Source: a virus (lineage: Duplodnaviria > Heunggongvirae > Uroviricota > Caudoviricetes). From it: DNA of 9,744 bases. The notes under the pieces are model-generated. The model was given only the letters and a program-made list of their open reading frames with translations, was not told where the DNA came from and did no database searches. How positions within the stretch are numbered: the first letter of the stretch is position 1; each line of letters begins with the position of its first letter. Position numbers and translations under genes: made by a program. This document shows positions 5,369 to 9,250 of the stretch, piece after piece. Location of the stretch: the IMG/VR virus record IMGVR_UViG_3300029469_000071; one strand, written 5' to 3'.

Positions 5369-5943
5369 TGGCATTCAGAATGAGTGAACAACCACGGACC
5401 ATAAAAATTTATAATCTGCTGGCCGGAACTAATGAATTTATTGGTGAAGGTGACGCATATATTCCGCCTCATACAGGTCTGCCAGCAAACAGTACCGATA
5501 TTGCACCGCCAGATATTCCGGCAGGCTTCGTGGCTGTTTTCAACAGTGATGAGGCATCGTGGCATCTCGTTGAAGATCATCGGGGTAAAACGGTTTATGA
5601 CGTGGCTTCCGGCGACGCGTTATTTATTTCTGAACTCGGTCCGTTACCGGAAAATGTTACCTGGTTATCGCCGGAAGGGGAGTTTCAGAAGTGGAACGGC
5701 ACAGCCTGGGTGAAGGATACGGAAGCAGAAAAACTGTTCCGGATCCGGGAGGCGGAAGAAACAAAAAACAACCTGATGCAGGTAGCCAGTGAGCATATTG
5801 CGCCGCTTCAGGATGCTGCAGATCTGGAAATTGCAACGGAGGAAGAAATCTCGTTGCTGGAAGCATGGAAAAAGTATCGGGTATTGCTGAACCGTGTTGA
5901 TACGTCAACTGCACAGGATATTGAATGGCCAGCACTGCCGTAG
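5368..5943 (+). CDS. tfaQ: Tail fibre assembly protein (Tfa chaperone), 191 aa
   Basis: Directly follows the tail fibre gene with a TAATG stop/start overlap (5366-5370). Length and sequence ([79 protein letters not shown]...) match the lambdoid Tfa family as recalled. Confidence 0.85.
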
Positions 5944-6947: not shown

Positions 6948-7181
6948 TTACATTTTACCATTTAAATTTTGGTTGTCTTTAAGAACTGATATCGCTGTTT
7001 GTAATAATTCTTTGTTATCCAGCCATGATTTTTTCTTTATGTTTCCTTCAATGTAATCAAGCAATGTTCTGGTATTGATAGGTCTTCCCTGTTTTGCTAC
7101 TTCCACTACAGCATCCCCTAGGATAATTCTTACTTCAGGAAGCTGCGCAGGGAACCACTTTAGGGTGTCTTTTGATTTCAT
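6948..7181 (-). CDS. ydfK: Small prophage-borne cold-shock-induced protein YdfK/YnaE family, 77 aa
   Basis: Start set at ATG 7179-7181 (MKSKDTLKWFPAQ...), which has an AAGGAA Shine-Dalgarno 8 nt upstream; the ORF-track start at 7214 adds 11 residues with no RBS. Sits between pin and ydfJ. Identity and the cold-shock annotation are recalled, not verified. Confidence 0.7.
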   Translation of the reverse strand: MKSKDTLKWFPAQLPEVRIILGDAVVEVAKQGRPINTRTLLDYIEGNIKKKSWLDNKELLQTAISVLKDNQNLNGKM

Positions 7182-7450
7182 GAAGATATTCCTTAAAATA
7201 TTATTGATTTTCATTGCGATATTGTATGTCTGATTCAGGATATGTTGACTTATACATCGGTTTTGTCTGGGTTATTGGATATGCCAATCCCTAATTTTAT
7301 TAGGGCATGACTAAAAATGCTGAATATGATAAGGAGAGATGTGATTATCAGTATGCTGTTCATATAGCCTCGAATTAGTAATGTGTTATATATGATATAG
7401 TTGACAATTTTTATCTTGGGTGTTCTTAAAGTTCGTAGATAAACATTGTC
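7182..7450 (-). promoter_or_regulatory. AT-rich upstream/leader region of ydfK; putative promoter and structured 5' UTR
   Basis: About 270 bp of strongly AT-rich sequence upstream of ydfK with several -10/-35-like hexamers on the minus strand (for example TTGTCA at 7401-7406 read on minus) and a perfect 7-bp hairpin CCCTAAT-TTT-ATTAGGG at 7289-7305. No single promoter can be singled out from sequence. Confidence 0.3.
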
Positions 7451-7682
7451 GTTTCAGGTATACAGGAATGCTAACAGGTGGCAGCAAAAATCAGGCGGTT
7501 TATGGCGCAAGCTGAAGCGGCAACTGCAAACTATCTTATGCAGAGACTCTACACGGATTGGGTTTAAAAGTATACATAGATAACAGTTTTTATCTGAAGA
7601 AGAAAAATATCAAGGTGATATAGCCTATATGCCTATGATGCGGAGGAATGAATGTGATGGGAGTGATGTATCTGAATAGTTG

Positions 7683-7723
7683 AAAAACCGCAGACACGCC
7701 TTATGCAAGAACGTGCTGCGGTT
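7683..7723 (-). terminator. Candidate rho-independent terminator on the minus strand
   Basis: Imperfect inverted repeat: AACCGCAG-A-CACG (7686-7698) pairs with CGTG-CTGCGGTT (7712-7723) around a 13-nt loop. Read on the minus strand the stem is followed by a 5-U run (plus A-run 7683-7687 overlapping the last stem pairs). GC-rich stem inside an otherwise AT-rich region. Confidence 0.35.
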
Positions 7724-7966
7724 GGCTGGTAAATTTTTCGATAGTGTGAGTATTGAATGATTTCCAGCCGTTCTTGATTTTACGCATAAATCCATGAAAA
7801 AACTACTTATCTGTTGGGGAGTTTTTTTGGGGCATATATGGGACAGAAATAGGCCCCAGATAGACACTGAGATCGAACTTAGGATGCTTTTTAAAAAATG
7901 CAACTATCTGAAAAAACCTAGAAAACGCCAAGGAAACCACAGGATGGGAAAAAACACCTGTGAATT

Positions 7967-9250
7967 ATGGATTTCCAGTTATATTCGCTCGGCGCAGCGT
8001 TAGTGTTTCATGAAATATTTTTTCCTGAATCATCAACGGCAATGGCGTTAATTCTGGCAATGGGAACCTACGGTGCAGGTTATGTGGCGCGTATTGTCGG
8101 AGCATTTATTTTCGGCAAAATGGGCGACAGAATAGGGCGTAAAAAAGTGCTCTTTATTACCATCACCATGATGGGGATCTGTACCACCTTAATTGGTGTG
8201 TTACCGACCTATGCACAGATTGGTGTTTTTGCACCCATCTTGCTGGTGACGTTGCGTATTATTCAGGGGTTGGGTGCAGGTGCGGAAATTTCCGGTGCCG
8301 GTACGATGCTGGCGGAATATGCGCCAAAAGGTAAGCGCGGAATTATCTCCTCATTTGTGGCTATGGGAACTAACTGCGGAACCTTGAGCGCAACGGCAAT
8401 CTGGGCCTTTATGTTCTTCATTCTCAGTAAAGAGGAACTGCTGGCGTGGGGATGGCGTATACCGTTCCTGGCGAGCGTTGTCGTGATGGTCTTTGCTATC
8501 TGGTTGCGTATGAATCTGAAAGAAAGCCCGGTCTTTGAGAAGGTTAACGACAGTAACCAACCGACAGCAAAACCTGCACCTGCTGGTAGCATGTTCCAGA
8601 GCAAATCCTTCTGGCTGGCAACAGGGCTGCGTTTTGGTCAGGCGGGTAACTCCGGGTTAATTCAGACTTTCCTTGCAGGCTATTTAGTGCAGACGTTATT
8701 GTTTAACAAAGCAATTCCAACAGATGCATTGATGATCAGTTCGATTCTCGGCTTTATGACCATTCCGTTCCTTGGTTGGTTATCCGATAAAATTGGTCGC
8801 CGGATCCCGTATATTATTATGAATACCTCCGCGATTGTGCTGGCATGGCCAATGCTTTCTATCATTGTAGATAAAAGCTATGCCCCGAGCACCATTATGG
8901 TTGCACTGATTGTGATTCATAACTGTGCGGTGCTGGGATTATTTGCTCTGGAAAACATTACCATGGCAGAAATGTTCGGCTGTAAAAACCGCTTTACCCG
9001 GATGGCTATTTCTAAAGAAATTGGTGGTCTTATCGCTTCCGGTTTTGGTCCTATCCTGGCGGGTATTTTCTGCACCATGACGGAATCCTGGTATCCGATC
9101 GCCATTATGATCATGGCATATTCAGTGATTGGTTTAATCTCTGCGCTGAAAATGCCAGAGGTGAAAGACCGTGATTTAAGTGCGCTGGAAGACGCTGCGG
9201 AAGATCAACCGCGTGTTGTAAGAGCTGCGCAACCTTCCAGAAGTCTGTAA
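7967..9250 (+). CDS. ydfJ: MFS transporter (metabolite:H+ symporter family), N-terminally truncated at the prophage junction; probable pseudogene or remnant, 427 aa
   Basis: Contains the MFS loop motif GKMGDRIGRKK and multiple hydrophobic spans. The ORF begins at ...DFQLYSLGAALVFHEIFFP..., which aligns with the end of TM1 in relatives such as KgtP ([20 protein letters not shown], recalled), so the N-terminal tail and most of TM1 are missing. In-frame stop at 7961-7963 and no Shine-Dalgarno before the ATG. Confidence 0.8.
   Translation: MDFQLYSLGAALVFHEIFFPESSTAMALILAMGTYGAGYVARIVGAFIFGKMGDRIGRKKVLFITITMMGICTTLIGVLPTYAQIGVFAPILLVTLRIIQGLGAGAEISGAGTMLAEYAPKGKRGIISSFVAMGTNCGTLSATAIWAFMFFILSKEELLAWGWRIPFLASVVVMVFAIWLRMNLKESPVFEKVNDSNQPTAKPAPAGSMFQSKSFWLATGLRFGQAGNSGLIQTFLAGYLVQTLLFNKAIPTDALMISSILGFMTIPFLGWLSDKIGRRIPYIIMNTSAIVLAWPMLSIIVDKSYAPSTIMVALIVIHNCAVLGLFALENITMAEMFGCKNRFTRMAISKEIGGLIASGFGPILAGIFCTMTESWYPIAIMIMAYSVIGLISALKMPEVKDRDLSALEDAAEDQPRVVRAAQPSRSL

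Follow-up and report, generated by a model that had tools for sequence, protein, structure and literature searches.

The hairpin at the ydfJ end of Qin

We analyse a minus-strand hairpin with an adjoining U-run (7723–7683) in the 9,744-nucleotide IMG/VR virus record IMGVR_UViG_3300029469_000071, the whole of which is referred to as the window. The window is drawn from the cryptic lambdoid prophage Qin and represents its ydfJ end, and Escherichia coli K-12 MG1655 is 99.35% identical to it over 5,076 aligned bases. RefSeq records that match at 99.2–99.7% annotate pinQ, ydfK (6948–7181), and ynfT (7250–7363) on the minus strand, and the truncated host gene ydfJ′ on the plus strand from 7967. A first-pass annotation, made from the letters alone, had described 7215–7966 as about 750 bp of AT-rich, non-coding DNA. 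The interval is AT-rich (37.6% GC vs 48% for the whole window), but it is not gene-free, as ynfT lies within it, and the boundary of ydfK is not at 7214, as RefSeq annotates the gene from 7181. Two open reading frames (ORFs; 7625–7903, minus, and 7794–8003, plus) are present and match no Pfam or NCBIfam family, in accordance with their earlier rejection as genes. The features between ydfJ′ and the end of the hairpin are as follows.

7967–7975, no strand: ydfJ′/Qin junction, attachment-site core region (MG1655 Qin from 1632277 = window 7975; coding sequence of ydfJ′ starts at 1632285 = window 7967)
7836–7966, minus: attachment-site-proximal arm including the upstream region of a former dinI-like gene (BLAST to the O111 prophage L005; promoter scan)
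7803–7835, minus: remnant of the dinI-like gene (pairwise alignment with L005)
7686–7783, minus: lambdoid element of ~100 nt (nhmmer, covariance model, fold, genome searches)
7679–7723, minus: probable intrinsic terminator (fold, Term-seq 3′ ends, covariation)

RNA 3′ ends map to the U-run of the hairpin

On the minus strand, the 5′ arm CCGCAGCACG (7721–7712) pairs with the 3′ arm CGUG-U-CUGCGG (7698–7688), which carries a single bulged U at 7694. The U-run UUUUU (7687–7683) follows directly 3′ of the stem, and the stem can be extended by A-U pairs to 7723/7686. The stem, the one bulge, and the five U residues are thus as first described at 7683–7723. The minimum free energy is −20.7 kcal/mol (z = −4.03), and an equally good fold is found in one of 200 shuffles. 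In a custom scan of both strands, the window contains six sites with a hairpin followed by T5, compared with 0.85 ± 0.96 in dinucleotide shuffles, and the 7683–7723 hairpin is the most stable of them. A standard terminator scan missed it because the loop is longer than 8 nt.

Two RNA 3′ ends have been mapped at this position. The Term-seq resource of Adams et al. 2021 (PMC7815308), obtained with K-12 MG1655 and not with the strain of the window, has three entries beginning 16325 in its supplementary file 1 and lists 1632571(+) and 1632574(+) as orphan 3′ ends. Read against the MG1655 sequence, 1632571(+) corresponds to window 7682 and 1632574(+) to window 7679, both on the minus strand. The former lies directly after CUGCGGUUUUUC (UUUUUC) and the latter directly after UUUUUCAAC (...CAAC). 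The Qin site is absent from the table of the same study that gives Rho scores. Minus-strand 3′ ends near 7683 had been set beforehand as the decisive check of the proposal that the hairpin is an intrinsic terminator. Together with the covariation of the stem described below, the ends at 7682 and 7679 bear this proposal out, and we infer that they arise from termination, not from processing.

The hairpin is the second stem-loop of a conserved element

The hairpin is not a local oddity but part of a widespread conserved phage element. The sequence 7800–7676 folds into two adjacent stem-loops (−35.9 kcal/mol, z = −4.64), and none of 200 shuffles folds as well. In stem-loop 1, GGCUGG (7769–7764) pairs with CCAGCC (7729–7724); stem-loop 2 is the hairpin. 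The element extends from GUAAAAUC at 7783 to the foot of the hairpin (nhmmer placement, 7783–7688), and the window copy scores 132.8 bits with the covariance model (CM) R1 of the element. In a megablast search of the interval, only 7684–7784 is found nearly everywhere: it is present, often unannotated, in 5377 of 5426 complete E. coli genomes. Phage lambda carries a leftward-strand copy at 24162–24256, between ea31 and ea47, and further copies are found in mEp460, cdtI, many Shiga toxin phages, and over a hundred IMG/VR contigs per search, the viral contigs with a copy numbering more than 200 altogether. With a hidden Markov model (HMM), 276 copies are detected in 264 sequences (the window and 263 fetched loci, numbered with an L), and 200 of these are full length.

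The boundaries of the element are sharp. The sequences upstream fall into at least seven unrelated classes, all joined at the same point of the element, and the sequence downstream diverges right where the stem ends: the downstream ORFs of 97 contexts fall into 50 clusters. An intact dinI-like ORF lies upstream in 57 of 199 copies, and a deletion of the Qin type is found in about 30. A second locus set was collected independently through the DinI-like protein, which avoids the bias of our own search patterns. The element lies directly 3′ of the dinI-like stop codon in 45 of the 47 distinct loci of this set. In these loci, the coding sequence has a mean pairwise identity of 93.3% (third codon positions, 87.0%). 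The value is 94.1% for the segment that begins at the stop codon and includes stem-loop 1 (up to CCAGCC), 66% for the hairpin, and 34% downstream. Homology that stops right after the hairpin, together with an element that directly follows a stop codon, is what one would expect where a transcription unit ends.

The pairing of the hairpin is maintained while its sequence changes. The copies were aligned with the purpose-built CM, and the alignments are thus fitted to the model; a MAFFT alignment misplaces the 3′ arm where the bulge differs, which makes its RNAalifold consensus unusable. In alignment A3 (108 distinct rows), 10 of the 11 hairpin pairs show two-sided changes, 92.5% of the cells are paired compared with 24–35% in slid controls, and none of 500 shuffles reaches any of five covariation measures. 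In alignment A4 (70 distinct rows), six of the 11 pairs show double changes, for example C-G 41/U-A 19 and A-U 32/G-C 12/G-U 19. Across both alignments, 92–94% of the hairpin cells are paired, compared with 24–57% in slid controls, and no shuffle among 500 attains the observed covariation score. The stem is therefore kept with compensatory changes in related prophages, as the terminator proposal had required of homologous regions. Stem-loop 1 is 97.9% paired in A4 and shows one compensatory pair (G-C 47/A-U 20); as this change is probably one evolutionary event, its support is weaker than that for the hairpin.

In a variant subfamily, the element is preceded by xis, int, and an attachment-site arm of ~365 nt, without dinI. 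Its copies carry the promoter-like box TTGAAT-N18-TAAAAT, whose hexamers are constant while the spacer varies, and the −10 hexamer coincides with the conserved element start GUAAAAUC. The box is found only in variant-B and variant-C copies. As judged from sequence, a promoter at this box would give an RNA of ~85–90 nt consisting of the two stem-loops. In contig L172 (2026–2145) and about 25 similar loci (L135, L163, L201, and others), the variant directly follows int and the attachment-site arm and precedes type III effector genes.

Small ORFs inside the element were considered and rejected, as the 28-codon ORF of Qin is not conserved: its frame is broken by indels and its start codon is not kept. 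In the dinI-linked consensus (e.g., L027 8685–8806), the dinI frame runs on past the stop codon without interruption to the end of the element. As it is disrupted by indels in several copies, that of Qin among them, we take it as a coincidence.

The upstream DNA is an attachment-site arm with a deleted dinI-like gene

The DNA 5′ of the hairpin is not the anonymous spacer it was first taken for. The segment 7815–8000 is 81.9% identical to the region between ydfJ′ and a DinI-like gene in the O111 prophage L005, which occupies the same site, and the alignment runs across the ydfJ′/Qin junction. In this O111:H8 prophage, an intact DinI-like ORF of 80 aa (PF06183, 56 bits) lies between the junction and the hairpin. 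In Qin, the ATG at 7835–7833 is followed by a reading frame of only 10 codons (MPQKNSPTDK) that ends with TAG at 7805–7803. Compared with L005, a single gap of 198 columns removes the body of the ORF, corresponding to an in-frame deletion of 198 bp with its junction at ~7815/7814, and a TGG codon among the retained C-terminal codons has become TAG. The remnant does not qualify as a PF06183 gene, since an ORF of about 70–80 aa has been cut to 10 codons. Because the window matches L005 on both sides of the one gap, 7803–7966 can be assigned to the attachment-site arm and the deleted dinI-like gene. At least 80% of the 752-bp interval is present in 2023 of the 5426 complete E. coli genomes, indicating that the dinI-deleted form is common.

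A minus-strand promoter between 7730 and 7960, which the first-pass annotation envisaged for a separate small RNA (sRNA), is not evident, as prediction gives a weak 8/12 match alone. No LexA box is seen by eye upstream of the dinI remnant, a formal scan not having been run, and the supplements of the Cappable-seq and SMRT-Cappable-seq studies have no entries for this locus.

Copies of the element in Rac, at ykgJ, and in lambda

K-12 contains three copies of the element: the full element in Qin, one in Rac, and one between ecpE and ykgJ. In the Rac copy, homology begins exactly at the hairpin (window 7725), and the Qin-type upstream arm is absent. No 3′ end is listed for the Rac hairpin in the MG1655 Term-seq data. 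As Rac has the same hairpin but neither the Qin-type upstream DNA nor a 3′ end, the RNA that ends at the Qin hairpin most likely starts in or beyond 7724–7966.

Upstream of the ecpE–ykgJ copy is a decayed dinI-like remnant, and 31 nt separate the end of the copy's stem from the ATG of ykgJ. A Term-seq 3′ end, 304213(−), is located 4–5 nt after the stem. This end is not in a significant Rho region, and its intrinsic terminator score is 2.78, below the threshold of 3.0. The 31 nt between the hairpin and the start of ykgJ leave no room for a normal promoter, so ykgJ may depend on read-through of the hairpin. The copy corresponds to L134 2183–2311 (MG1655 304182–304310, minus), and, with the decayed dinI-like gene in front of it, ykgJ resembles phage cargo that has become fixed in nearly all E. 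coli. Minus-strand read counts in files 1 and 3 of Adams et al. 2021 are roughly 10–100 times the plus-strand counts throughout the table. In our own reading, the two strands thus appear to be on different scales, and the signal strengths at Qin and ykgJ are not comparable.

Lambda has a second copy, consisting of the hairpin only, at 22573–22619 on the leftward strand (L264 74–120); it lies just downstream of ea47 and faces the end of the tail-fibre-assembly gene. Two or three copies of the element are also found in other contigs (L191). With repeated copies in lambda and in these contigs, the hairpin seems to act as punctuation between consecutive leftward accessory genes. Sequence identical to E. 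coli prophage DNA occurs in contigs labelled as a Caldithrix metagenome-assembled genome, Chryseobacterium, and Lysobacter (L008, L011, and L012); these are short or isolated and most likely represent contamination.

The leader of ynfT and ydfK lies downstream of the hairpin

Four features of the interval lie downstream of the hairpin.

7569–7598, minus: promoter-like site TTCAGA-18-TATACT, candidate promoter of the ynfT–ydfK leader (9/12 in the scan)
7364–7562, minus: reported 5′ leader of ynfT–ydfK, in which a premature 3′ end is mapped at 7509
7250–7363, minus: ynfT, a small protein of 37 aa of the YnaM/YnfT family (RefSeq, PF23676, NF041477)
7221–7248, minus: promoter-like site TCAACA-16-TACAAT between ynfT and ydfK, a possible promoter (9/12 in the scan)

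YnfT scores 96.2 bits against PF23676 (cut-off 27) and 63.9 bits against NF041477 (cut-off 35). In accordance, tagged YnfT protein has been detected experimentally, listed as ynfQ at 1632890–1633003 (PMC6001520).

A third orphan Term-seq 3′ end, 1632744(+), and its Rac equivalents, 1434552(−) and 1434540(−), have been reported (PMC7815308). The former corresponds to window 7509, inside the ynfT–ydfK leader, and the latter lie inside the ynaM–ynaE leader. Where Raghavan et al. 2011 is cited in PMC5089854 and PMC4152368, the ynaE and ydfK leaders are described as giving prematurely ended transcripts that co-purify with Hfq, and according to the same accounts the RNAs ‘ttcC-ynaE’ and ‘5′ UTR-ydfK’ (UTR, untranslated region) are Hfq-bound. 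Together with the mapped end at 7509, these accounts agree with the suggestion that the interval contains a long regulatory leader. The leader fold (7565–7355) is not more stable than shuffles (z = −0.39). The end at 7509 is not preceded by a hairpin with a U-run, and it lies ~55 nt from the best promoter-like site (7569–7598). The leader RNAs resemble the hairpin in their intergenic interval and strand. However, premature ending and association with Hfq are features of the leaders; the leader, with its 3′ end at 7509, is downstream, and the hairpin is a separate structure 170 nt upstream of that end.

The hairpin probably closes a short transcript from the attachment-site side

We consider it likely that the hairpin is an intrinsic terminator, which closes a short transcript left near the attachment site by the deleted dinI-like gene and shields ynfT–ydfK. 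According to this proposal, the minus-strand hairpin and U-run at 7723–7683 would work as a Rho-independent terminator, forming the second stem-loop of the ~100-nt element just inside the attachment-site arm of lambda-like phages. In intact relatives, a dinI-like gene directly precedes the element, whereas in Qin, where this ORF has shrunk to 10 codons, a transcript entering from the attachment-site side would be only about 150–290 nt long. Such a transcript might start from a weak promoter in 7836–7966 or by read-in across ydfJ′. Stopping at 7682/7679 would close the attachment-site-proximal unit and would keep transcription out of the downstream unit of leader, ynfT, and ydfK, which appears to be separately promoted and is associated with cold shock.

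Several observations weigh against this proposal. The transcript is known by its 3′ end alone, and Term-seq gives a modest signal at the Qin site. The sole promoter-like match in 7730–7960 is weak (8/12; TTGGCG-17-GATAGT at 7931–7903). In the hairpin, G-U pairs do not greatly outnumber A-C mismatches (56 vs 35), so that the sequence itself gives weak evidence as to which strand is transcribed, and the assignment to the minus strand rests mainly on Term-seq. Furthermore, at least four U residues are present in the 8 nt after the stem in 96 of 141 distinct copies, whereas the other 45 have at most three, and the two copies of lambda have none. As many copies lack a U-tract, termination cannot be the sole reason for the conservation of the hairpin.

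The terminators of moron and accessory genes of phages resemble the element in their GC-rich stem, their U-run, and a 3′ end mapped in the U-run, and also in closing a small accessory unit beside a separately promoted cargo unit. Unlike plain terminators, the element has a second, sequence-conserved stem-loop upstream, so that the pair forms one cassette of ~100 nt in many contexts, and many of its copies lack a good U-tract.

Alternative functions of the element

A tentative alternative, which we hold to be less likely, is that the whole ~100-nt element serves lambda-like phages as a functional regulatory RNA, with the hairpin as its terminator and protective 3′ end and with the Qin deletion leaving a short carrier transcript. 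Between the stop codon and CCAGCC, the 5′ half is more conserved than the third codon positions of the gene before it and the hairpin after it (94.1% vs 87.0% and 66%), and the 5′ and 3′ boundaries are constant behind at least six unrelated upstream sequences. A conserved loop beside a stem that drifts yet stays paired resembles functional RNAs, but frequent recombination at a shared module boundary could also produce this pattern and the high conservation. In the variant subfamily, the change from GGCUGG/CCAGCC to GGCUGA/UCAGCC (GC 47, AU 20) is compensatory, although it is probably a single event, and the TTGAAT-N18-TAAAAT box is kept; the dinI context, however, has no usable −35 hexamer. 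Two of the K-12 copies have mapped 3′ ends. Neither a 5′ end nor a target nor binding by Hfq or ProQ is on record for the element, and the long U tail typical of Hfq-dependent sRNAs is missing from many copies. In a comparison limited to nearby sequences, the complementarity of the loop to the attachment-site arm, the leader, and the 5′ regions and ribosome-binding sites of ynfT, ydfK, pinQ, and dinI is not above that of shuffles.

A precedent is DinR, an Hfq-dependent sRNA cut out of the dinI mRNA's 3′ end in Klebsiella. Both DinR and the element are structured, terminator-ended RNAs at the 3′ end of a dinI-family gene. However, DinR is chromosomal, specific to Klebsiella, and controlled by LexA, and its processing by RNase E, its binding to Hfq, and its target ftsZ are proven, whereas for the element the likeness is one of structure and position. 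The 3′ end of the chromosomal dinI of E. coli is a simple terminator unrelated to the element. It is a speculative step further, and one we rather doubt, that the element represents an undescribed family of phage regulatory RNAs, present in lambda, in Shiga toxin and other lambdoid phages, and, as the copy upstream of ykgJ, in nearly every E. coli chromosome. The conserved loop of stem-loop 1 would mediate its action, in trans or in cis, and the RNA would be made as the 3′ end of the dinI-like mRNA or from the TTGAAT-N18-TAAAAT promoter.

It is improbable that the hairpin is the counterpart of lambda tI/sib, which in the phage form is found on the int strand immediately past attP and after integration at the far prophage end. 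A counterpart would end int transcripts or mark them for degradation, and in the prophage it would be stranded, merely blocking read-in. The position of the element is similar: mEp460 has the order int, dinI, element; L172 has xis, int, an attachment-site arm of ~365 nt, and the element on one strand; in prophages the element lies about 270–330 nt from the contig end and points inward; and in Qin, where intQ is at the other end, it is directed inward from ydfJ′. However, the element has no sequence similarity to lambda sib, and neither the CM nor the HMM matches lambda between ea59 and attP. Lambda has its own tI, and its copy of the element, between ea31 and ea47, is 3.5 kb from attP, after ea59 and ea31. 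In addition, int and the hairpin usually have a translated dinI gene between them, and a stem of 11–13 bp is short for an RNase III site.

Equally doubtful is a role mainly at the DNA level, as a short conserved linker for the exchange of modules by homologous recombination with incidental RNA 3′ ends: the sharp boundaries with many different junctions on both sides, the hairpin-only copies at other module joints (Rac and lambda 22573–22619), and the number of G-U pairs, not strongly above that of A-C mismatches, would fit a linker, but a linker needs identity and not pairing, whereas the stem drifts (66%) while double changes keep it paired, and RNA ends are seen at two copies.

Relation to described RNAs and repeats

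Rfam contains no family for the element on the transcribed strand. The sole hit, a weak one, is to RF02799, CssrB (chromosome-encoded Shigella sRNA B), whose 3′-terminal consensus hairpin is the reverse complement of this hairpin. The match is thus on the opposite strand; it scores 28.5 bits on the plus strand, compared with a gathering threshold of 76, and only the terminal hairpin aligns well, while the remainder of the model matches a different downstream module. Two further candidates were rejected. The TRIP1 repeats (PMC10888264), with three K-12 copies, are unrelated GC-rich repeats at aqpZ, putP, and yohI. The anti-sRNAs AgvB and AsxR are located at the PR′ moron site of lambdoid phages, and their Rfam models have no match in the window.

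Elsewhere in the window, the Rfam model IS009 matches 5711–5909 (plus strand, 220.9 bits), wholly inside the coding sequence of the tail-fibre-assembly gene tfaQ. IS009 also lies beside tfa remnants in eight of 16 related loci scanned (L133, L134, L003, L004, L007, L009, L013, and L025). This ‘RNA family’ may be a conserved coding fragment.

Implications

The analysis turns a supposed spacer of ~750 bp into an ordered map that runs from an attachment-site arm through a deleted dinI-like gene, a probable terminator, and a leader to ynfT and ydfK, and it explains two ‘orphan’ 3′ ends of a widely used E. coli Term-seq resource. It also points to a short, sharply bounded, and structurally conserved RNA element that recurs at the accessory end of lambda-like phages and is present in almost all E. 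coli without a curated family. Should this element turn out to do more than terminate transcription, the host's regulatory inventory would gain a widespread phage RNA, and there would be a way to approach how the cargo at prophage ends is insulated or controlled.

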